12,497 bases of DNA from a virus (taxonomy: Duplodnaviria; Heunggongvirae; Uroviricota; Caudoviricetes), in the IMG/VR virus record IMGVR_UViG_2859799533_000004. One strand, 5' to 3'. This document shows, piece by piece, positions 1-12,497 of this stretch. Under the pieces are notes generated by a model, which was given only the letters and a program-made list of their open reading frames with translations, was not told the origin of the DNA and did not search any database. The stretch's first letter is position 1; each line of letters opens with the position of its first letter. The position numbers and the translations under genes are program-made.

Positions 1-1230
1 ATGAGCAGAGCACTTAACAAACTGAGCGATACACAGCTGAGGAAAATCAACGGCACACCCGCCCAAAAAACAGCCTTTCTTAATGACGGTGGAAACCTGA
101 GCGTCAGGCATTCAACCAGCGGCCTTTTAACCTGGTATTTCACCTACAGGGCCGGAACGGGAAGGGGAGCACGACCGGAACGGATTAAGCTGGGAAATTA
201 TCCTGATCTGAGTCTGAAAGCTGCCAGGGAAAAAGCGGCACAGTGTCGCGCTTGGCTTGCTGAGGGGAAAAATCCACGTCATGAGATGAATTACACCGTA
301 CAGAAAGCGTTAAAGCCCGTAACGGTTGGCGATGCGCTTACCTACTGGCTTGAGTCTTACGTAAAGGAAAACCGCGTGGATTATGCCGCCCTGAAAAAGC
401 GCCTTAATAATCACGTAATACAGCACATTGGTGCTATGCCGCTGGATAAATGCGAGCTACGGCACTGGCTGGCCTGTTTTGACCAGGTGGCAAAGCGAAC
501 GCCTGTTACTGCCGGATTCTTGCTACAGACGTGCAAACAGGCGCTTAAGTTCTGCCGGAGGCGGCGCTATGCAATCAGCAACGTTCTTGATGATATGAGT
601 GTGGCGGACGTTGGGAAAAAACCGGATATAAGCGAGCGTGTCTTAAGCACCAAAGAACTTGGCGAATTATTGCAGGCACTGGACAAAAAAATATTTTCCC
701 CTTACTACGTCGCACTAATCCGCCTCCTGATTGTTTTCGGATGCCGGACGGTAGAACTGAGGTTATCGGAGATCAGCGAGTGGGATTTTACCGAAATGCT
801 CTGGACCGTGCCGAAAGAACACAGCAAAACGAAGGTGGCAATATTCCGGCCCATACCGGAAGCAATACTGCCGTTCGTCACGCAGCTGGTGGAGCAGAAC
901 AGGCACACGGGCTTATTGCTGGGGGAAGTGAAACAGGAAACAAGCGTGTCGCAGTACGGCAGATTAGCGCACAGGAGGCTAAAACACCCTCACTGGTCAC
1001 TGCATGACATCCGGCGCACCTTTACAACGATGCTGAACGATTTAGGCGTGGATCCTCACGTCGTGGAGCAGCTTACAGGTCATCAGATGCCAGGGATGCA
1101 ACGAGTCTATAACCATTCCCGTTATCTGGATGCGAAACGTGACGCGCTGGATATGTGGACGGAGCGGTTAGGGATACTGGCGGGAACACATGAAAACGTA
1201 ACCACATTGCCAATAGCCAGAGAAATATAA
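1..1230 (+). CDS. int: Tyrosine-type site-specific integrase, P4 family (N-terminal arm-binding domain plus C-terminal catalytic domain)
   Basis: Full 409-aa ORF. N-terminus has the P4-integrase arm-binding pattern (LNDGGNLSV...WYFTYR...IKLGNYPDLSLKAAREKA). C-terminus carries catalytic motifs HDIRRTF (HxxR), LTGH and VYNHSRY (nucleophile Tyr). Confidence 0.92.
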   Translation: MSRALNKLSDTQLRKINGTPAQKTAFLNDGGNLSVRHSTSGLLTWYFTYRAGTGRGARPERIKLGNYPDLSLKAAREKAAQCRAWLAEGKNPRHEMNYTVQKALKPVTVGDALTYWLESYVKENRVDYAALKKRLNNHVIQHIGAMPLDKCELRHWLACFDQVAKRTPVTAGFLLQTCKQALKFCRRRRYAISNVLDDMSVADVGKKPDISERVLSTKELGELLQALDKKIFSPYYVALIRLLIVFGCRTVELRLSEISEWDFTEMLWTVPKEHSKTKVAIFRPIPEAILPFVTQLVEQNRHTGLLLGEVKQETSVSQYGRLAHRRLKHPHWSLHDIRRTFTTMLNDLGVDPHVVEQLTGHQMPGMQRVYNHSRYLDAKRDALDMWTERLGILAGTHENVTTLPIAREI

Positions 1231-1376: not shown

Positions 1377-1511
1377 TGGCGAATCACTCTTAAAAATATG
1401 TAAAAAAGGCGTAAAAGTAAAATTTTATGCCTTTGCATCATAATGAATTAAAAGAGTTTTTATTCTCATTCCCCTGCTTCTGTAAAACGACCGCCGCCAG
1501 TGTTTGCCATT

Positions 1512-1545
1512 CCACAAACACCCTGACACAATCCGACACAACCCA
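1512..1545 (+). repeat. Second array of phased CACAA-type direct repeats just upstream of alpA
   Basis: CACAAACACC(1513), ACACAATCC(1526), ACACAACCC(1537) at about 11-bp spacing; same motif family as the 1265-1312 array. Confidence 0.45.
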
Positions 1546-1594
1546 ACCCAATAATCCACCCAATGACTCTTTAAGAAACAACAAAGGGGGAATT

Positions 1595-1783
1595 GTGTTA
1601 AGCACAGATCGCTTTATACGTGAAAAAGAATGTCAGCAACTTACAGGCCTGAGCCGCTCATGTCGGTACCGCCTGGAAAAAGCCGGACAATTCCCATCAC
1701 GGCGTAAGCTGGGCGGTCGTTCCGTTGGCTGGTCTTTATCCGAAGTTCTGGCATGGAAGGACAGCTGCGAGGCAGTTCACTAA
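1595..1783 (+). CDS. alpA: AlpA-family (P4 Vis-like) small DNA-binding regulator/excisionase
   Basis: C-terminal 62 aa of ORF 1427..1783 match the AlpA/Vis pattern (LSTDRFIREKECQQLTGLSRSCRYRLEKAGQFPSRRKLGGRSVGWSLSEVLAW). Start placed at in-frame GTG 1595 after AAAGGGGG; the ATG at 1427 would add an N-terminal extension across the repeat arrays. Confidence 0.8.
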   Translation: MLSTDRFIREKECQQLTGLSRSCRYRLEKAGQFPSRRKLGGRSVGWSLSEVLAWKDSCEAVH

Positions 1784-1835: not shown

Positions 1836-2210
1836 ATGAATACTGGATATTCTCCCGAACAAGGGCGGGGCTTCGTTCGTCCTGAAAAACAGAATCTGCA
1901 AAATTTTGCCGAAATTATTCCGGTTATTTCCGGCCTTACTGGCGGGAGTGAAACCAATATTGTTAACGCCAGAGCGTTGCAGATGTTTGATGATAAAAAG
2001 GGAGTAAATTTAACTTACACCCCTGACGGCAATCAGAATATGAGCATTATCTCTGAGTCAGGTTTCTACAAACTAATAAAAACAAAAAGCGCCCCGTTGC
2101 CGGAGCGCCTTTGTGAACAATTAACCTACTGCGCAAAAAATGAATCTGAGCAGTGGGATTATATCAACCATGTGGAGAAGCGCCACAATTGCCGAATAAC
2201 GGGCAAAACA
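1836..2210 (+). CDS. Possible Bro-N-like (antirepressor-type) protein fragment; 3' end undefined because the frame stays open to 3260
   Basis: N-terminal ~125 aa are protein-like and contain a Bro-N-like motif (DDKKGVNLTYTPDGNQNMSIISESGFYKLIKTKS). The remainder of the 474-aa ORF is Cys/Ser/Arg-rich and antisense to better-supported minus-strand genes. End coordinate is nominal. Confidence 0.3.
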
Positions 2211-2311
2211 AAGGCCACCCGCTACGGTGGCCCCTCGACACAAGCTACACGTTATCCCCAACGCATGAGCATTGCCAACAATGCCACATTTGCGGCTGGT
2301 GGGCAATGCAA

Positions 2312-2500
2312 TCAGTCTGGTTCAGTTCGTTGCCATACCTGCAATGAGCGCTTTTCCCTGTACTCTTTAAGGAATTGCTCAAGGGCAAAAGCACATGGCG
2401 CGAATCTTTCTGATTCATGCTCTATCTTTCTGCGCCGTCTTTTCCGTGCCGGTGATAATGTTTTGGTCAATTCTTTATCGGTCATTGTGTTGTCCTGCAT
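2312..2500 (-). CDS. Small basic protein (57-62 aa), second gene of the leftward pair; function unknown
   Basis: ORF with an RRRRK basic patch. An internal ATG at 2485 has a better SD (AGGA, 7-nt spacer) than the ATG at 2500. Lies 42 bp downstream of the RHH-like gene. Confidence 0.45.
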   Translation of the reverse strand: MQDNTMTDKELTKTLSPARKRRRRKIEHESERFAPCAFALEQFLKEYREKRSLQVWQRTEPD

Positions 2501-2542
2501 AGCAATGCGCCGTAATACCTTACACCACGGCGCTGATGGTGA

Positions 2543-2848
2543 TTACTCTGGTTCTTTGGTCTTGCGGCGCTGGAGTTCTTCACGTGCGACAGTGACGAGC
2601 TGCCCGATCTCCTCGGCGGCTTTGATTCCGAGTTTTTCCACCTGCGCCAGTGCATCGAGCGAAGAAACCAGGGGATTTTCTCCACTTCCTTCTGCCTGGC
2701 GCCGGGCGATCTCACCGCGTACAGCCGTAACTATAAAATTCGCTTTAGTTTCCCCTGGCTGTAGGGATGCCTCAATGCCACTCACTACTTCATGTGGAAA
2801 TCTGGCATTCAGTTGCTGTGACTTATTGTTAACAGAACTCCTGGACAT
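2543..2848 (-). CDS. Putative transcriptional regulator, possibly ribbon-helix-helix type; candidate island repressor (or antitoxin)
   Basis: 101-aa protein from ATG at 2848 with strong SD (GGAGGTG, 5-nt spacer). N-terminal pattern NARFPHEVVSGIEASL...TKANFIVTAVRGEIARRQ fits a beta-strand plus two helices. It is transcribed divergently from the main operon across the operator palindromes. Confidence 0.55.
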   Translation of the reverse strand: MSRSSVNNKSQQLNARFPHEVVSGIEASLQPGETKANFIVTAVRGEIARRQAEGSGENPLVSSLDALAQVEKLGIKAAEEIGQLVTVAREELQRRKTKEPE

Positions 2849-2891
2849 GTTTGCACCTCCCATTAATAACGGGATGCAGTGTAATACAAAA

Positions 2892-2946
2892 GTGAATACC
2901 AAAAAAGACTTGAAATGGTATTCACCTAAATGTAATGTGAATACCA
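2892..2946. promoter_or_regulatory. Operator region: three copies of GTGAATACCA forming two overlapping perfect 10-bp-arm palindromes between the divergent genes
   Basis: GTGAATACCA at 2892-2901, TGGTATTCAC at 2916-2925 (inverted), GTGAATACCA at 2937-2946; read directly. Confidence 0.6.
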
Positions 2947-2984
2947 CAAGTGCTGATACATGCAATTCAGCAATTGAAACGACG

Positions 2985-3017
2985 AAGCCCCGCACTGTTG
3001 GAGCAGTAACGGGGCTT
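2985..3017 (+). promoter_or_regulatory. Imperfect long hairpin in the leader of the rightward operon
   Basis: AAGCCCCG(2985-2992) pairs with CGGGGCTT(3010-3017), extended by CACTG/CAGT. No following T-run, so it is not a classic terminator. Confidence 0.3.
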
Positions 3018-3053
3018 CTAACCACCAACGATAACGAGAGTATCGAGGTAGCT

Positions 3054-3260
3054 ATGAGAAATCATACCACACACCCGCAAGGGCGGGACTCGCACAACCT
3101 GAATAAATACATCTGGCGTTTTATCGCCCTGAGCACTGCACAACCGCGCGTGATTACCATTGAGGCCACCAGCGAACAGGAAGCACGCCAGCAATCCCCG
3201 GCTGGCTGCGTGATGGTATTCGCTGCCCGTATTCGTCAGGAGGTGTGCCATGTGCAATAA
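3054..3260 (+). CDS. Small protein (68 aa), first gene of the rightward operon; tentatively Icd-like (P4 cell-division-inhibitor family)
   Basis: ATG 3054 with SD GAGGT (4-nt spacer). Protein-like sequence YIWRFIALSTAQPRVITIEATSEQEARQQ...VMVFAARIR. The family assignment is from memory and unverified. Its stop overlaps the next start. Confidence 0.5.
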   Translation: MRNHTTHPQGRDSHNLNKYIWRFIALSTAQPRVITIEATSEQEARQQSPAGCVMVFAARIRQEVCHVQ

Positions 3261-4289: not shown

Positions 4290-4589
4290 ATGAAACTTAA
4301 ATATTCTGGCTTAACTGCCAGTGGCAACACTCACCCTAAATTTACGCGCGGTGATATTTACCGCGACCAGTACGGCGGCACGGTAATGATTAAGGGCGTG
4401 GAAGAACGGCGTGTAACCTACCGCCGTGAAGGTTACGAATATGATTGCGTGATGCCTGTTTATCAGTTCCGGCGTGATTTTTCTCTGGTACAGACCGCGC
4501 CGCATAACGTGCCCACCAGCAACGCCAGGGCACGGGCAAACATCCAGAAGCTGAAAACCATGGTTAACGGATTCAGGGGCAAGAAATGA
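4290..4589 (+). CDS. Hypothetical protein (99 aa) immediately upstream of, and coupled to, the replicase gene
   Basis: ATG 4290 with GGAGA upstream; its stop overlaps the rep start (ATGA). Confidence 0.65.
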   Translation: MKLKYSGLTASGNTHPKFTRGDIYRDQYGGTVMIKGVEERRVTYRREGYEYDCVMPVYQFRRDFSLVQTAPHNVPTSNARARANIQKLKTMVNGFRGKK

Positions 4590-5884
4590 AAAGCGCACCG
4601 AACTTAAAAAAACAGCCTTACGACAAGATGACCGAAGTCATTATTTTTGCGGGTAGTGATGCCTGGGCACATGCGAAACAGTGGCAGGAACAGGACGGGC
4701 GACTGGCTGGCGATAATGTGCCTCCCGTTGTGCTGGCTGATGATCAACTGGATGAACTGGCAGACCTGAGAATCATCGACGAGGGGCGCTATTGTGTCCG
4801 GCTGTACAAGGCAGGCCACATCAGGCCATCAAATATTAATGCCATTGCGCACAAGCTGGCGGCGGCGGGTGTAACTGATGCGAATTATTACCCCGAAGGG
4901 ATGCACAGCCATATGCGGGAGAACTGGCGCGAATACCTGGAACGGGTGCGCGGGAAAGAGCCGGCGGAAGAAAAAAACCACCAGCGAAAAACCACGCTAC
5001 CGATGAGCGTTGGATCTACCGGATACGACACGCAACTGGATTACGTGGTTAAGGGGATTATTCCGGCGGTATCGCTATGCAGCATATACGGAGCTAGCGG
5101 GTCCTATAAATCATTCCTTGCCGGATCGTGGGCGTGCCATGTTGCCACTGGTCGCCAGTGGGGAGGCCGCAGGGTTGCACATGGTGCGGTTCTCTATGTG
5201 GTTGGTGAAGGCGGTATAGGTGTTCCGCGTCGTGTAAAAGCCTGGGAGGTTGTGCACGATGAGCAGGTGAAAAATCTGTATCTGGTAAACCGCCCCATCT
5301 TTCCGGCTGCCCCGCTTGATGTTGATGAAATGGTTATCGCTGCCCGTCAGGTGGAGCGGGAAACGGGTAAACCTGTACGCATGATTATTCTGGATACGCT
5401 GGCGCGTTGCTTTGGTGGGAATGATGAAAATGATTCCCGTGATATGGGGGCGTTTATCCGTGGTTGTGACGAACTGAAACGACGCACAGGGGCCACGGTG
5501 CTGGTGGTTCACCATTCCGGCAAGGATGAGACGAAAGGCGCGCGCGGTTCCAGTGCATTTCGTGCTTCGCTGGATGCTGAATACCGGATACGCAGGGAGG
5601 ACGCAGGAAGCGAAGCGCTGGTTATCTCATGCACCAAAATGAAGGACGCGGAGGAACTCAAAGAAGCCGCATATGACTTACGCGTGGTGGAGCTTTTTAC
5701 CGACGCTGACGGTGAATTAATCACGTCGCTGGTGGTGGTGGATGATCCGCGCCCTCCTGTTGAACTGGAGCGCATCGAGGAGGCAGGGAACAAGACGGAA
5801 AACCATACCGCGCTATGGGGTGCATCCGTTCACGCACACAGAACGGCGACAAGTGCACGATCCCGCTGTTACGTGATGACATGA
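4586..5884 (+). CDS. Replication protein: RepA/DnaB-like RecA-fold P-loop ATPase (AAA_25-type helicase core) with ~150-aa N-terminal extension
   Basis: P-loop region IYGASGSYKSFLAGSWACHVATG (5090-5113), Walker B VRMIILDTLARCF, and the family-typical VLVVHHSGKDETKGARGSSA motif. The Walker A is non-canonical (Tyr where the Gly before Lys is expected). Confidence 0.82.
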   Translation: MKSAPNLKKQPYDKMTEVIIFAGSDAWAHAKQWQEQDGRLAGDNVPPVVLADDQLDELADLRIIDEGRYCVRLYKAGHIRPSNINAIAHKLAAAGVTDANYYPEGMHSHMRENWREYLERVRGKEPAEEKNHQRKTTLPMSVGSTGYDTQLDYVVKGIIPAVSLCSIYGASGSYKSFLAGSWACHVATGRQWGGRRVAHGAVLYVVGEGGIGVPRRVKAWEVVHDEQVKNLYLVNRPIFPAAPLDVDEMVIAARQVERETGKPVRMIILDTLARCFGGNDENDSRDMGAFIRGCDELKRRTGATVLVVHHSGKDETKGARGSSAFRASLDAEYRIRREDAGSEALVISCTKMKDAEELKEAAYDLRVVELFTDADGELITSLVVVDDPRPPVELERIEEAGNKTENHTALWGASVHAHRTATSARSRCYVMT

Positions 5885-6185: not shown

Positions 6186-6437
6186 ATGACCCAAAAACGC
6201 AGAGACAGAACAGAGCCAAAATATAAAGCGTTAGACATGACTGAGCACACCTTAAAGGTGGCAATCAGAACGATAGACCGCCACACGCGGGAAGGATACG
6301 CGAAGGAACATCCCGACCTGATAAGCGCATTCATGACCACGGCGGCGGCAAACTTTGCCACGCTGACAGAACGGGAGATTGCCGAAGCGGAACAGGTAAC
6401 AACCATCAACGTTAAAACCGGAGAGGTGGAATCATGA
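6186..6437 (+). CDS. Hypothetical protein (83 aa) overlapping the origin and coupled to ssb
   Basis: Start at ATG 6186 within ORF 6156..6437; stop overlaps the ssb start (ATGA). Confidence 0.5.
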   Translation: MTQKRRDRTEPKYKALDMTEHTLKVAIRTIDRHTREGYAKEHPDLISAFMTTAAANFATLTEREIAEAEQVTTINVKTGEVES

Positions 6438-6856
6438 CAGCACAGATAGCAGCTTACGGGCGGCTGGTGGACGACCCGCAGGTAAAACAGACCAGCAAGG
6501 GCACACCAATGACGCTGGCACGTATGGCGGTCCCCCTTCCGTGCAGCCAGGCAGATGACGGAACGGCGACGATGTGGTTATCCGTCCTGGCATTTGGCAG
6601 ACAGGCCGAAGCACTGGAAAGGCACCGCAAGGGTGAACTCCTGAGCGTGGCGGGTAACATGCAGATCAGCCAGTGGACTGGGCAGAACGGAGAAACGCGG
6701 CAGGGCTGGCAGGTTATCGCAGACAGTGTAATCAGTGCGCGAACGGCGCGACTGGGCGGCAAAAAAGGTCAACAGGGCCAGGCTACTGACGCGCTGAACA
6801 GGGCAAAACAACAGGCGGGGAATGATGATCCGTACGGGGATAACATACCGTTTTAA
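6434..6856 (+). CDS. ssb: Single-stranded DNA-binding protein (SSB, OB fold with acidic C-terminal tail)
   Basis: N-terminal pattern MTAQIAAYGRLVDDPQVKQTSKGTPMTLARMAV and C-terminal ...DDPYGDNIPF, which parallels the E. coli SSB tail DDDIPF. Confidence 0.85.
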   Translation: MTAQIAAYGRLVDDPQVKQTSKGTPMTLARMAVPLPCSQADDGTATMWLSVLAFGRQAEALERHRKGELLSVAGNMQISQWTGQNGETRQGWQVIADSVISARTARLGGKKGQQGQATDALNRAKQQAGNDDPYGDNIPF

Positions 6857-7186: not shown

Positions 7187-7215
7187 ATTGCACAAAATGC
7201 AATCATGATTATAAT
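7187..7215 (+). promoter_or_regulatory. Candidate promoter of the capsid operon with an overlapping palindromic operator
   Basis: -35-like TTGCAC (7188-7193), 16-bp spacer, -10 TATAAT (7210-7215); palindrome ATTGCA-N5-TGCAAT at 7187-7203. Confidence 0.35.
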
Positions 7216-7271
7216 CAGAGCTGGATGAACATCCAGTTATGATTTTTTAAGTCGAAGAGGAATTTCTTACT

Positions 7272-7478
7272 ATGGCTGAAGAGAAAAAAGGCGGTGTTTC
7301 GGTGTACATAAGCCCCGAAATCGTGGAGGTGCTCAAGCAGCGCCACAAAAAAAACTATGAGGCTGGCGTGGCGGCTGGACTGGATCCGCTGATGACGCCG
7401 GAGCCGTCGATAGGTTCACTTGTACGCTCTTATTTACTTGCGGCGCTTGGGATGCATAAAAATTATGGGGGTGAATAA
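7272..7478 (+). CDS. Hypothetical protein (68 aa), first gene of the capsid operon
   Basis: ORF with GAGGA upstream; its stop overlaps the capsid gene start (TAATG). Confidence 0.55.
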   Translation: MAEEKKGGVSVYISPEIVEVLKQRHKKNYEAGVAAGLDPLMTPEPSIGSLVRSYLLAALGMHKNYGGE

Positions 7479-8533
7479 TGGCAGGCAAAGCAACGGCACT
7501 TAACACTCACCAGCTTTTTGCGTACCTGAATCGCGGGGATATTGCGGAATTTAAATTTAGTCCGCTGTTTACCACGCTGTTTTTCCCGAAAGTAGCGACA
7601 TTCAACACCCAAAACATCATGCTGGATAACCTGGACACCGAAGAAGTCACTATGTCAGCGTTTTGCTCGCCTATGGTTGGTAGCCAGGTACAGCGCGATA
7701 AAGGGTACGAAACCAGCACGATTAAACCTGGCTACATGAAGCCAAAGCACGAAATCGATCCAACAAAAACCATCATGCGCATGGCTGGAGAAGATCCGGC
7801 ACAGCTTAACGACCCAACCTATCGCCGTATGCGCCTGATTACTGGCAACATGCGCCGCCAGGTAAACGCTATTAAAGCGCGTGTTGAATGGCTGGCGGTA
7901 AATGCGGTAACGACCGGAAAAAACATCATTGAGGGCGAAGGCATAGAACGCTATGAAATCGACTGGAAGATGCCGGAAAACAACATCATAGAGCAGGCCA
8001 AAGGCCGTAAATGGTCCGAGCAGGACAAAGAAACCCACGATCCAATCTATGATATCGAGCTTTATGCGGATCAGGGCAATTGCCCCGCAAACGTCATGAT
8101 TATGGGCGCTGAGGTATGGCGCACGTTACGCAGCTTTAAAAAATTCCGCGAACTGTACGATCTTTCCCGTGGTTCAGAATCCGCCGCAGAACTGGCCTGT
8201 AAAAACCTGGGCGAAGTGGTGAGCTTTAAAGGCTATCTGGGCGATATTGCCCTTATCGTCTATTCCGGCAAATACGCCGACAGCGACGGCACCGAAAAAC
8301 ATTTCCTTGAGCCTGATTTGCTGGTCTTGGGCAACACCAACAATAAAGGGCTGGTTGCTTATGGTGCGATTATGGATCAGGAAGCGGTAAGAACGGGCGC
8401 AACGCAAAACATGTACTACCCGAAAAACTGGATTGAGGACGGCGATCCGGCGATTGAGTACGTGCAGACGCACAGCGCACCGCAGCCGGTGCCGGCAGAC
8501 ATTCGCAAATTTGTTACCGTCAAAATTGGTTAA
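7478..8533 (+). CDS. Major capsid protein, phage lambda gpE family
   Basis: 351 aa. Shares multiple blocks with lambda gpE as recalled: FKFSPLF..LFFP, PGYMKPKHE, EDPAQLNDPTYRRMR, RGSESAAEL..LGEVVSFKGYLGDIALIVYSGKY, YPKNW, GDPA. Similar length to gpE (341 aa). Confidence 0.85.
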   Translation: MAGKATALNTHQLFAYLNRGDIAEFKFSPLFTTLFFPKVATFNTQNIMLDNLDTEEVTMSAFCSPMVGSQVQRDKGYETSTIKPGYMKPKHEIDPTKTIMRMAGEDPAQLNDPTYRRMRLITGNMRRQVNAIKARVEWLAVNAVTTGKNIIEGEGIERYEIDWKMPENNIIEQAKGRKWSEQDKETHDPIYDIELYADQGNCPANVMIMGAEVWRTLRSFKKFRELYDLSRGSESAAELACKNLGEVVSFKGYLGDIALIVYSGKYADSDGTEKHFLEPDLLVLGNTNNKGLVAYGAIMDQEAVRTGATQNMYYPKNWIEDGDPAIEYVQTHSAPQPVPADIRKFVTVKIG

Positions 8534-8544
8534 CGGGGGATTCT

Positions 8545-8880
8545 ATGAACACTCCATACATTGAGTTATTTGCAGGCAGTCAGCAGGTATCCACGACGCT
8601 GGTACATTTTGCCGCTGATGCTGGCGTCATTCAGGAATTTACCCCGCTGATGCTGGCGGACAATGGCGAGTTTAAGCCGTGGGATGGTCAGGCGTCCGGA
8701 AAGGCTGTTTATCTGACTTCGTACCCCGTGGACACGTCAAAGCAGAAATCAGCACAGTGCTACAAGACGGGGATCTTTAATATCGCCGCCGTGAACTGGC
8801 CCGAGAGCGTCGACACCGATGCGAAAAAATGCGCCGCCTTTGCGGGTTCTGGCGTATCCGTTCAGCCGCTGGCCCGATAA
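8545..8880 (+). CDS. Head decoration protein, phage lambda gpD family
   Basis: 111 aa versus 110 aa for gpD. Shared motifs TPLMLAD, WDG, YKTG.F, WPE, KK.AAFAG. Confidence 0.78.
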   Translation: MNTPYIELFAGSQQVSTTLVHFAADAGVIQEFTPLMLADNGEFKPWDGQASGKAVYLTSYPVDTSKQKSAQCYKTGIFNIAAVNWPESVDTDAKKCAAFAGSGVSVQPLAR

Positions 8881-8892
8881 GCAGGGGGAACG

Positions 8893-9306
8893 ATGGCAAC
8901 GAATGAAAGCATCATGACGCTACCGCTGGCGAGTAAATTTAAAGCCGAAGCGCGGGCAATGGCTGACAGAGGTTTATCAACCTACGAGGCCGTATATCAA
9001 CTCAACAAACTGGAAGAGCAGGACAAGCCGCGCGCTGATGCGATTATGGCGCTTCATGAGCATAACGACTATCAGCCGCTGTTACGTGCAATGGCAAACG
9101 TGCCTTGTATCGATGTTGGTACGGCTAAAAGCATCCTTAGCATGACCATAGAGCAGGAACGCCAGAAGGTTGCGCCGGAGCTTACCGCAGCCTTTGAAAA
9201 CTTTATGGACATGCACAGCCCGCAAGCCGTTTCAGCTGGCATGGCATACGACGGCAGAAACCCGGGCGATGATGGCGACATCGAGAGCATACTGAAAACC
9301 ATCTGA
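8893..9306 (+). CDS. Hypothetical protein (137 aa), last gene of the capsid operon, immediately upstream of cos
   Basis: ORF with GGGGGAA SD; no family recognised. Candidate packaging accessory protein by position only. Confidence 0.6.
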   Translation: MATNESIMTLPLASKFKAEARAMADRGLSTYEAVYQLNKLEEQDKPRADAIMALHEHNDYQPLLRAMANVPCIDVGTAKSILSMTIEQERQKVAPELTAAFENFMDMHSPQAVSAGMAYDGRNPGDDGDIESILKTI

Positions 9307-9311
9307 GACAA

Positions 9312-9334
9312 GGCCGGAGAAATCCGGCTTTTTT
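9312..9334 (+). terminator. Rho-independent terminator after the capsid operon
   Basis: GCCGGA-gaaa-TCCGGC hairpin plus TTTTTTT; nearly identical to the terminator at 6873-6894. Confidence 0.7.
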
Positions 9335-9420
9335 TACGGGTCCTTTCCGGCATATGGACCCGTTACGGGGCGGCGACCTCGCGGGTTTTCGCTATTTATG
9401 ACGTTTTTCCGTGAAGGTGA
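9335..9420 (+). other. Lambda-type cohesive-end site (S2): cosQ, cosN and the start of a lambda-like cosB
   Basis: ACGGGTCCTTTCCGG...GACCCGTTACG then GGGCGGCGACCT (9367-9378) CGCGGGTTTTCGCTATTTATGA matches the lambda right-end/left-end junction as recalled; followed by CGTTTTTCCGTG, resembling lambda R3. Confidence 0.85.
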
Positions 9421-9468: not shown

Positions 9469-9909
9469 ATGATTGATAAAGCTTGTTTTGTAAGTCAGCA
9501 GGAAATAGCTGAACATTTCAAGGTTAACAGAACCACTATTCGCGCATGGACCAAACAGGGGATGCCGTATCTTAATGCGGATCGCGGAAAGTCTGGCGGT
9601 TATCACATCGGGCATACATTGCTTTGGTCTTCAGGTAAAAGCCGTCTTGAGGCCATCAGATATCACGTAGAAACCAGTGCGCTGGAAAAAATTATGTTTG
9701 CCAGGCTGCTTTCATCTGAGCGTGACGAGTACTCCAGTGAAGAAACAGAACATAGATTTGATGAAGGTTTACAGATTTACGGCTACTCACCGGAAGAAGT
9801 GAGCAAAGCGCGAAATAAAATGGCCGGCTTTCTGGCTGGGTGGCGTCATGCCGTAAGCGTTCGCCGTGCCAGCATGGAACAATCAGTCGTTACAGAACAG
9901 CAAAGTTAA
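9469..9909 (+). CDS. Small-terminase-like protein with Nu1-type N-terminal winged-HTH; candidate island packaging-specificity factor
   Basis: N-terminus VSQQEIAEHFKVNRTTIRAWTKQGMPYL parallels lambda Nu1 VNKKQLADIFGASIRTIQNWQEQGMPVL; the C-terminal half is unrelated to Nu1. Gene sits directly downstream of cos, as Nu1 does in lambda. Confidence 0.72.
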   Translation: MIDKACFVSQQEIAEHFKVNRTTIRAWTKQGMPYLNADRGKSGGYHIGHTLLWSSGKSRLEAIRYHVETSALEKIMFARLLSSERDEYSSEETEHRFDEGLQIYGYSPEEVSKARNKMAGFLAGWRHAVSVRRASMEQSVVTEQQS

Positions 9910-10090: not shown

Positions 10091-10103
10091 CCCTCTAAAA
10101 AAG

Positions 10104-10169
10104 CTCATAAATAGCGAAAAACCGCGAGGTCGCCGCCCCGTAACGGGCCATAATTCCAGGAAGGACCCG
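10104..10169 (-). other. Second lambda-type cos site (S3) in inverted orientation
   Basis: Reverse complement reads CGGGTCCTTCCTGG..GGCCCGTTACGGGGCGGCGACCTCGCGGTTTTTCGCTATTTATGA; the cosN 12-mer is identical to S2 (complement at 10127-10138), and the flanks are about 85-90 percent identical to S2. Confidence 0.8.
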
Positions 10170-10652: not shown

Positions 10653-10931
10653 ACAATCCCCCATTGGGGAGGCTGGGCGGCCTGCTGTGGGCTTTTCCAC
10701 CATTGGTGGAAAGGCGCACATCTGGATCATCATTACGGTGATCAAGGGTATGTAAAACCCACCAGCCTGATTGACATTTAACCGGAAAAAAGCCAGGTAG
10801 CCCCGTTATGGGGATCCCCATATCGACATTAACGCCCCTCATGAATTGGCGCGCTTCCCCCTGGAAAGATGACCCGCCTGTATATTTCTTGTGTCTATTT
10901 GTTCCACGTTGTTTCATACAGTGCAACGATC

Positions 10932-10955
10932 GGTGTAGTTAATGGTGTAGTCAAT
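10932..10955 (+). repeat. Tandem 12-bp direct repeat GGTGTAGT(T/C)AAT
   Basis: Two adjacent copies, 11 of 12 identical, followed by a GCACT-N5-AGTGC dyad, in the region downstream of phoQ. Confidence 0.45.
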
Positions 10956-11036
10956 TTGCGATTTTTAGCACTTTTGCAGTGCAAATCATTTAATTAAATC
11001 AATGGCTTGCCTTGATGTAGTGATAAAAGGACATAT

Positions 11037-12497
11037 TTATTCATCTTTCGGCGCAGAATGCTGGCGACCAAAAATCACCTCCATCCGCGCACCGCCCAGC
11101 ATGCTCTCTCCGGCGACGATTTTACCCTCATATTGCTCGGTGATTTCGCGGGCTACCGCCAGCCCTACACCTTGCCCAGGGCGTAAAGTATCAACCCGTT
11201 GACCACGGTCGAAAATGACCTCTCGCTTGCTTAATGGAATACCGGGGCCATCATCCTCGACCACAATATAGAGATGCTCGTCGGTTTGCCTTGCAGAAAT
11301 TTCGACAAACTCGAGGCAATATTTACAGGCATTATCCAGCACGTTGCCCATCACCTCGACAAAATCGTTCTGCTCACCGACAAAGCTGATCTCTGGCGAA
11401 ATATCGAGAGAGATATTGACCCCTTTGCGTTGATACACTTTGTTCAGCGCTGAGGTGAGATTGTCCAGCAGTGGGGCGACCGGATGCAGCTCGCGGCTGA
11501 GCAATGTCCCGCCGCGCATACTGGCACGATGCAGGTAGTAGCCAATTTGCTGTGAAATGCGGCTGATTTGCTCCAGCATTACCGGCTCAGCATCACTGAC
11601 GCTCATCTTTTCACTACGCAGAGAACGCAGCGTACTTTGCAGCACCGCCAGTGGCGTTTTCAGACTATGGGTCAGGTCGGTGAGCGTCGTACGGTATTTG
11701 TCGTAACGTTCGCGTTCACTTTTTAACAATCGGTTCAGGTTTCGTACCAGACTGGTCAGTTCTCGCGTTGTGGCTGGATTGAGCAATTCGCGGTTATGTT
11801 CTTCCAGTTCGCGGACTTCTTTTGCCAGGGCTTCGATGGGGCGTAAACTCCACCAGGCGGCGACCCACAGCAGCGGGATCACTAACAGCAGATTGGCTGA
11901 GAGCACATAGATAAACCAGCTCCAGACCATATAGGAACTTTTTAGCTCCACCGGAATGGTATCCACCACCACAATGGTTAATTTTGGCATCCGCGATGTT
12001 GCCGGGTAGACGTTTACTGCCACCGAGTGGGTCATCTCCGCGTCGTCATCATCTTCCCGCACTTCCTGCAACTGTTGCTGTATCGAATGATCTCCACTCA
12101 GCAAGAGGCTGGTATCGTTAACATCCGCTTCAATTTCATGAAAACCATTCGATTTCAGCCAGTCAGGCTGGATCATCTTCATCAGCCAGGGCACGTCACG
12201 TTGCGCCCATAAAAGCTGCCCGTTCTCATCATAAATTAGCGTCATGGTGGGGCTTTGCTTGTCGATATTTTCGGGTAACTCGACATGCAACTTATTGTTT
12301 TCCCACTTCGCAAGGGTATAGAACAGATTGCTCTCGCCACGTAACAGCCGAAACGTAGTTTTATCGAAACTGACGCTATAACCGATCAGCGCGACCATTC
12401 CGTAGGCAAGCGAAAGCACCAGTACTACCGCAGCCGTTGCCAACAGAAAACGTACCCGCAGCGAGAGCGGGAAAAAAAGACGCAGTAATTTTTTCAT
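11037..12497 (-). CDS. phoQ: Sensor histidine kinase PhoQ of the PhoP/PhoQ two-component system (chromosomal flank)
   Basis: Complete 486-aa ORF recognised as PhoQ: N-terminus [41 protein letters not shown], periplasmic acidic patch [13 protein letters not shown], phosphoacceptor [11 protein letters not shown], and kinase G-boxes DDGPGIP and GQGVGLAVA. Confidence 0.97.

Follow-up and report, generated by a model that had tools for sequence, protein, structure and literature searches.

A conserved late operon of an Escherichia coli phage satellite encodes capsid, decoration and predicted scaffold-related proteins

The window analysed here is a 12,497-nt stretch of DNA (a provirus call in IMG/VR, record IMGVR_UViG_2859799533_000004, locus L010) that begins at the start codon of int, a tyrosine integrase gene, and extends through phoQ. 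All genes between int and phoQ lie on the plus strand, and four of them, at positions 7272-9306, encode in order a protein of 68 amino acids (aa), a major capsid protein, a head decoration protein and a protein of 137 aa. It is near certain that this group is the conserved late (capsid) operon of an E. coli phage satellite, and near certain as well that the island holding it is an allele, of about 11.0 kb, of EcCICFT073, the prototype of the classical Gram-negative phage-inducible chromosomal islands (PICIs), situated between roxA and phoQ. The four open reading frames (ORFs) had been placed exactly by an earlier note on this DNA, and the same four coding sequences are annotated by RefSeq in an identical island at roxA|phoQ of E. 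coli 2017C-4173W12. Coordinates are collected in Table 1.

The 351-aa product of the second gene matches PF03864 (Phage_cap_E) with E=4.2e-50 and 171 bits against a cut-off of 22.9, over profile positions 15-328 of 329, and matches phrog_29 with E=4e-105. Its identity to lambda gpE is 43% over 342 aa, and its N-terminal arm displays two 4-residue insertions relative to phage gpE. The third product matches PF02924 (HDPD) with E=5.6e-18 and 65.6 bits (cut-off 29.1) and shares 36% identity with gpD over 76 aa, its first ~30 residues being unaligned to gpD. These profile comparisons agree with the gpE-like and gpD-like identities that the earlier note had proposed. Judged by their sequences, the two genes are genuine homologues of gpE and gpD; formation of trimers by the decoration protein and its binding to the shell are only predicted. 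No portal, S49 protease or large terminase (TerL) gene was found between int and phoQ in the ORF list, by Pfam and PHROG comparison or in the RefSeq annotation. The same absence had been claimed in the note, which added that a scaffold gene was missing too; this last part was partly wrong.

The 137-aa product, previously listed as unknown, appears from profile evidence to be a short relative of the C-terminal domain of the gpC/Nu3 scaffold, over residues about 46-125, with no protease part. It matches the extreme C-terminus of phrog_53, a head-protease/scaffold family, with E=5e-8, and lambda Nu3 in turn matches phrog_1999, the profile of the 137-aa family, with E=2.7e-26. When the family profile was searched against 1.84 billion proteins, it retrieved scaffold-type proteins of 149-270 aa (E=4e-8 to 4e-4) that themselves match lambda Nu3-type scaffold families strongly. 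Residues 49-118 (70 aa) are 36% identical to the C-terminus of a gpC homologue from a lambdoid (helper-type) prophage of CFT073, and comparison of residues 45-92 with the phage repeat unit gave z=10-13, and with lambda Nu3 z=4.9. With the shallow 137-aa alignment, hhalign gave a weak match to lambda Nu3 taken alone (probability 4.9, E=0.008), and the homology therefore depends on profiles and intermediate sequences. Residues 1-45 have no counterpart in Nu3 and bear a weak likeness to the repeat unit (62 of 2000 shuffled sequences reach the same score); an internal duplication is only suggestive, at about p=0.03, and is not claimed. No tblastn match to the protein was found in phage genomes at 1e-3. 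gpFI (132 aa) was considered as an identity for a small operon protein and showed no similarity. The kinship of c1501, the EcCICFT073 counterpart, with scaffolds is an addition of the present analysis; in the literature searched, no paper gives these genes a function or links c1501 to a scaffold.

The gene that follows the decoration gene varies among lineages: it is Nu3-like, encodes an AlpA-domain protein in lineages whose capsid proteins are 51-55% identical, or is absent. The AlpA-domain (PF05930) proteins, of 114-145 aa, are encoded at L093 11402-11746, L095 10403-10756 and L096 10375-10812 and are not Nu3-like. Some E. coli strains carry 93-aa variants of the 137-aa protein (P0028, P0030, P0031) with an in-frame deletion of residues 21-64, the end-points of which lie within a short direct repeat, ...ARAMA(D/N)....

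The head module of lambda (B, C/Nu3, D, E) offers a comparison, with E, D and the C-terminal domain of Nu3 homologous to the island's proteins. The order differs, being C/Nu3-D-E in lambda and small ORF-E-D-Nu3-like in the island, which also has no portal or protease domain; identity is at most 47%.

In the case of the 68-aa protein, the description as unknown held, as there was no informative match: neither Pfam nor NCBIfam matched it, a tblastn search of 50,697 phage records found nothing, and NCBIfam has no model for any of the four operon proteins. An AlphaFold2 model (pLDDT 72) contains two helices, and a Foldseek search with it against PDB and BFVD returned nothing below E=0.1, ribbon-helix-helix proteins appearing only among non-significant rows, a mere hint. 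Lambda gpW, which is also 68 aa long, was tried as an identity for a small operon protein and showed no similarity. The gene is kept wherever the capsid protein is at least 63% identical, among the E. coli, Salmonella and Edwardsiella islands examined, and in each instance its stop codon lies at the capsid start. It is only 68% identical to its CFT073 counterpart (L009 17463-17669), with flanking genes at 94-100%, and its two allele types assort independently of Rpp type and attachment site. This divergence could reflect a recombination boundary or diversifying selection.

A promoter-like element upstream of the operon overlaps the palindrome ATTGCAcaaaaTGCAAT (7187-7203), and this block is kept in six islands, the divergent island L007 included. 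The element was missed by a consensus promoter scan, its -35 hexamer matching at 3/6 positions. The hairpin that follows it is kept in five islands and not in L007. No similarity was found between the operon's upstream region and helper late-promoter regions, and Rfam at its gathering threshold gave nothing in the window.

The operon was present in 598 of 5,426 complete E. coli genomes, with at least 80% coverage in 590 of the 598. It moves as a unit, being found at roxA|phoQ, tRNA-Pro/yejM and cspD|clpS with varied integrases, varied replication modules and two unrelated genes for proteins like the small terminase (TerS). All four ORFs are intact in five islands and three of them are constant in length; the 137-aa gene encodes 115 aa in L007. 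When the window was compared with four other islands, the ratios of nonsynonymous to synonymous change (dN/dS) for the capsid and decoration genes were 0.10-0.17 and 0.04-0.09, and those for the 137-aa and 68-aa genes 0.23-0.30 and 0.15-0.38, respectively. The genes of the capsid operon are intact and under purifying selection.

In a census of 80 related IMG/VR loci, the 68-aa gene was present in all 80, the decoration gene in 79, beside the capsid gene, and the 137-aa gene in 73. The decoration gene adjoins the capsid gene in every satellite lineage examined. Portal, protease and TerL genes were absent from 77 loci. The three exceptions have a portal or a protease gene, and one of them also a partial TerL gene; in each, the satellite lies inside the portal gene of a lambda-like prophage, and these head genes therefore belong to the helper. 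Helper D and E in those loci are 35-47% identical to the satellite's. These data bear on the idea that the operon is a decaying, functionless remnant of a prophage, which the partial head module could suggest. That idea is scarcely credible in view of the intact ORFs, most of them constant in length, dN/dS well below 1, the occurrence of the operon in hundreds of E. coli genomes at several attachment sites with different integrases and replication modules, the full satellite organisation of the island and the experimental mobilisation of EcCICFT073. The comparison of homologous islands that the earlier note had called for came out in favour of a satellite: across many attachment sites and several genera, these islands have no portal, protease or TerL of their own.

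No phage copy in INPHARED is more than 47% identical to the capsid protein, and the decoration protein is at most 43% identical to phage copies among the best-ranked matches listed. More distant capsid relatives, at 67% (Salmonella), 63% (E. coli, Edwardsiella), 55% (E. coli), 54% (Serratia) and 51% (Salmonella) identity, are all satellite-borne in the same layout, and portal, protease and TerL of their own were absent in all of these satellites examined. Scans of GTDB species-representative genomes yielded no relatives. A neighbour-joining tree grouped the satellite capsid proteins in a single clade (100/100 bootstrap) beside the clade of enterobacterial phage gpE (99/100). The capsid lineage is old and satellite-specific, not recently captured.

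This phylogeny is difficult to reconcile with a model in which the module consists of captured helper late genes, acting as a backup where helper head genes are interrupted or delayed and as a neutral passenger in free-standing islands (PMC10111431). Satellites embedded in the helper capsid gene E do bring their own E homologue, and the late zones of PICIs capture helper late genes in clusters. However, a monophyletic capsid clade no more than 47% identical to phage copies argues against repeated or recent capture, islands within portal gene B have capsid and decoration genes and no portal, and free-standing chromosomal islands retain the module under purifying selection. Backup is therefore an improbable explanation. 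Module-bearing satellites embedded in helper late genes were observed in portal gene B (L060, L061, L084 and L097) and in capsid gene E (L094), in agreement with the helper-embedded PICIs of Mageeney et al. 2023. L007 and L096 are satellites within myovirus prophages, and some helper prophages pair lambda-type heads with P2-type tails; myoviruses with lambda heads were seen in L003 and L007.

Table 1. Features of the window, with amino acid identity to the CFT073 counterpart where one was compared.
Feature	Position	Strand	Description	Identity to CFT073
Int, tyrosine integrase	1-1230		PF00589 and arm-binding domain	100%
AlpA-like regulator	1427-1783	+	phrog_2790, E=4e-18	
RepA/AAA_25 helicase	4586-5884	+		
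SSB	6434-6856	+		
Promoter-like element	7188-7215	+	TTGCAC-16 nt-TATAAT, upstream of capsid operon; read from sequence	
Hairpin then T-run	7219-7248	+	Terminator-like or 5' stem-loop, between promoter-like element and 68-aa gene	
68-aa protein	7272-7478	+	EcCICFT073 c1498 family; phrog_3255; stop overlaps capsid start (ATGA)	68% (c1498)
Major capsid protein	7478-8533	+	Lambda gpE family, c1499 allele; 351 aa; PF03864, phrog_29	94% (c1499)
Head decoration protein	8545-8880	+	Lambda gpD family, c1500 allele; 111 aa; PF02924	96% (c1500)
137-aa protein	8893-9306	+	c1501 allele; predicted gpC/Nu3 C-terminal-domain relative without protease domain	95% (c1501)
Hairpin GCCGGAgaaaTCCGGC and T-run	9313-9336	+	3' end of four-gene operon; read from sequence, unlisted by scan	
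cos1 (cosQ and cosN)	9337-9408	+	Upstream of rppA; GGGCGGCGACCT at 9368-9379	
RppA, TerS-like	9469-9909	+	c1503 allele; redirects helper terminase to satellite cos	98% (c1503)
cos2	10098-10169	-	Inverted cosQ-cosN copy; from sequence comparison	
93-aa ORF (orf93)	between int and phoQ	+		100%
attR	10885-10959	+	Copy of 75-nt att repeat; from repeat comparison in L001	
phoQ	11037-12497	-		

The remainder of the island has the organisation of a classical PICI. The integrase gene is at the left end, att repeats flank an element whose size is within about 10-15 kb, an AlpA regulator precedes a co-directional replication module, and helper-type cos sites accompany an Rpp packaging-redirection protein. 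No tail, lysis, portal or TerL genes were found in the window. Own portal, head maturation protease, head-tail connectors and TerL, the marks of a capsid-forming PICI (cf-PICI), were likewise not found there. Several small genes also sit between int and phoQ on the plus strand. The 75-nt att repeats were located in L001 (where position 1728 is position 1 of the window) at 1632-1706 and 12612-12686, and their spacing of 10,980 bp gives the element its size of ~11.0 kb. A mechanical ORF of 474 aa at 1836-3260 is probably not a real gene; RefSeq has only small genes there, on both strands, including YlcI/YnfO-family and Icd-like genes.

Both cos1 and cos2 carry the lambda cosN sequence GGGCGGCGACCT. 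Their arms, of 72 nt and 86% complementary, are inverted and flank rppA; the pair was seen in all five family islands checked and not in the more divergent L007. These are the published sites of EcCICFT073, for which the authors leave the reason for two copies open. Two unrelated TerS-like proteins, 17% identical, were observed to follow the same capsid module, a 146-aa RppA type (19 of the IMG/VR loci) and a 180-aa Nu1-like type (41 loci; for example L004 11242-11784).

EcCICFT073 (Fillol-Salom 2018, PMC6092414; 2019, PMC6739421) shares with the window the roxA|phoQ site, collinear c1498-c1501 and cos1/cos2 flanking rppA, and the supplement of the EcCICFT073 paper confirms the gene lengths of c1498-c1502. 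The assignment of the island as an allele follows from the shared site, from the identities listed in Table 1 for the integrase, orf93, RppA and the capsid, decoration and 137-aa proteins, and from the presence of AlpA, a RepA-type helicase, SSB, cos1/cos2 and the att repeats. AlpA has the same RefSeq protein accession in L001 and CFT073, and Int, AlpA, RppA and orf93 are 98-100% identical. The two islands differ in that EcCICFT073 has a primase (L009 14242-15996) where the window has its AAA_25 helicase, and in that the window operon has no PerC gene upstream. The replacement of the replication module is an instance of module shuffling inside one attachment-site lineage. Helper-driven induction, excision and high-frequency transfer have been demonstrated experimentally for the EcCICFT073 allele only.

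A partial capsid module is already known for this best-studied E. coli satellite, having been published in 2018, when c1499 and c1500 were described as capsid and head decoration proteins, respectively (Fillol-Salom et al. 2018, PMC6092414). Moreover, no late gene is more widespread in Gram-negative PICIs than the capsid gene, which is carried by 21 of 29 reference elements and is dispensable for transfer (Mageeney et al. 2023, PMC10111431); the Dokland 2019 review remarks on the same puzzle. The premise of the earlier note, that satellites have either no capsid genes or a complete head module, is accordingly outdated. The intermediate architecture that it proposed is a real partial module, yet is not new, being the published norm for this satellite family.

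Published tests of function used lambda, phi80 and CFT073 phage 4 as helpers and single deletions only, and tests of interference used lambda, phi80 and HK97. Deletion of c1499 or c1500 did not restore lambda plaques and left interference unchanged (PMC6092414). When genes downstream of ori were expressed singly, only c1503 (RppA) inhibited lambda (Fillol-Salom et al. 2019, PMC6739421). EcCICFT073 DNA packaged by lambda was all phage-sized, and no band of PICI monomers was seen in CFT073 with its native helper (PMC6092414). In later work, the same laboratory describes large capsids as the ones in which these islands are packaged. It was considered whether the c1501::tetA marker had disrupted the scaffold-like gene and so voided the published negatives; this was ruled out, as the Table S6 primer ends in the 3' end of c1501 plus its stop codon and the tetA cassette was placed directly after intact c1501, before cos1.

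We tentatively favour, as a possibility somewhat short of probable, a reading in which the satellite proteins build full-size, DNA-fillable shells on the helper portal, redundantly with the helper's own shell. Upon helper induction, the satellite shell protein would form full-size lambda-like shells, nucleated on the helper portal and matured by the helper protease, and the Nu3-like protein may assist their assembly. The packaged DNA would be a concatemer of ~44 kb, made up of four copies of the island, which helper terminase under redirection by RppA would cut at cos1; at 11.0 kb per copy, this length is about 90% of that of the lambda genome (48.5 kb). After packaging, the shell would be stabilised by the satellite decoration protein. 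The helper would contribute portal, protease, TerL/TerS, head-completion proteins, tails and lysis. With laboratory helpers, the satellite's supply of shell would duplicate helper E and D, and it is proposed that the single deletions were silent because of this redundancy.

The main argument for productive shells comes from the decoration gene. Lambda gpD binds only expanded, DNA-filled shells, at sites formed by the E-loop and N-arm of gpE. If the satellite protein binds in the same manner, a private decoration protein would therefore be useful only where shells of the satellite capsid protein become filled, and the constant retention of the decoration gene with the capsid gene favours productive shells over a poison. 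The N-arm of the capsid protein and the N-terminus of the decoration protein are both unlike lambda's, as expected if the two are a matched pair. Full-size shells fit the phage-sized packaged DNA of EcCICFT073. The Nu3-type domain fits assembly around a portal, given that incorporation of the portal in lambda requires Nu3, which interacts with E (PMC3224144). The natural helpers have lambda-type heads, as embedded copies sit within lambda-like portal or capsid genes.

Several points weigh against satellite-built shells. No experiment places these proteins in any particle. Transfer by phage 4 was unaffected by deletion of c1499 or c1500 (3.8e3 and 8.7e3 transductants/ml, as compared to 8e3), and replacement of c1499 by cat gave higher transfer, which the authors ascribed to island size. 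A merely redundant function is hard to square with long-term purifying selection, and a shell protein 43-47% identical to the helper's may be unable to use the helper portal and protease. The AlphaFold2 model of the 137-aa protein is all-helical and of low confidence (pLDDT 46), too poor for a fold search. Nor is the Nu3-like gene universal, being missing in Salmonella L090 and Edwardsiella L097 and substituted by the AlpA-domain gene in the 51-55% lineages. A real advantage may show only with particular helpers or in competition. A more specific proposal sees the four operon genes as a satellite-specific kit that, with natural helpers, would yield capsids of satellite protein on a stolen portal; this is conceivable, though doubtful. 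Size, stability or recognition by terminase/FI might set a shell built from such a kit apart from that of the helper.

A difference in size is the basis of another explanation, in which T=4 or T=3 capsids that take in one or two 11-kb copies and keep out the helper genome would be formed with other helpers, either by the satellite shell protein alone or with the short Nu3-like scaffold. There are precedents for both. SaPI1 CpmB is reportedly (Dearborn et al. 2017) an alternative internal scaffold that shares the capsid-binding C-terminal region of the helper scaffold. The 137-aa protein resembles it in sharing such a region, and is shorter than Nu3 (201 aa) with the C-terminal domain kept; there is no mutual sequence relationship between the two, the window satellite supplies its own shell protein too, and size redirection by the 137-aa protein is hypothetical. 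Ccm of SaPIbov5 (PMC8569155) is also a satellite homologue of the helper major capsid protein in a cos-packaged satellite; it fills pentamers and turns prolate heads into small isometric ones, whereas no size change or interference was found for the EcCICFT073 homologue with lambda and phage 4, and the window capsid gene differs from ccm in having matched decoration and scaffold-related partners. The related Pasteurella PICI PmCI172 likewise has a capsid-protein homologue and makes small capsids. By arithmetic, the capacity of a T=4 lambda-type shell would be ~21 kb, enough for roughly two 11.0-kb copies. Against these precedents stand the phage-sized DNA packaged by lambda, the missing monomer band, the large capsids of the later work and the unchanged lambda interference of both deletions. 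The small capsids that the earlier note envisaged found no support with the helpers tested, and size redirection with other phages is unlikely.

The note had also raised dominant-negative poisoning. In this explanation, the shell, decoration and scaffold paralogs would spoil the capsids of the helper or of competing lambdoid phages, to the protection of the host population or the advantage of the satellite. Satellites often disturb capsid assembly, the 137-aa protein could compete for the site of helper gpC/Nu3 on the shell protein, and the phages tested for interference were three in number. However, the failure of either deletion to relieve lambda and the singular inhibitory activity of c1503 argue against it, and a pure poison would need no co-evolving decoration protein, given that gpD binds only filled shells. 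None of the four operon proteins matched a defence model in PADLOC, the sole match being a weak helix-turn-helix match of RppA to mads_1. Poisoning did not hold for lambda and, though it could act on other phages, interference or defence is not a likely function of the operon.

A further comparison is with the cf-PICIs of the EcCIEDL933 type. These likewise encode their own shell protein behind the same kind of int-alpA-rep left arm, and they differ in carrying the full set of capsid, protease, portal, head-tail connectors, HNH, TerS and TerL and in forming small capsids, whereas the window has no portal, protease, TerL or connectors. In a whole clade of Enterobacterales satellites, purifying selection has maintained capsid and decoration genes that have as yet shown no phenotype. 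The scaffold kinship of c1501, the linkage of capsid and decoration genes and the age of the clade make the question of function easier to test. If the kit proposal is true, redundancy with laboratory helpers would account for the negative results of 2018-2019, and the classical Enterobacterales PICIs would be a functional intermediate between capsid-hijacking satellites and cf-PICIs. Satellite shells on a helper portal, if demonstrated, would bridge the hijackers and the complete capsid builders.

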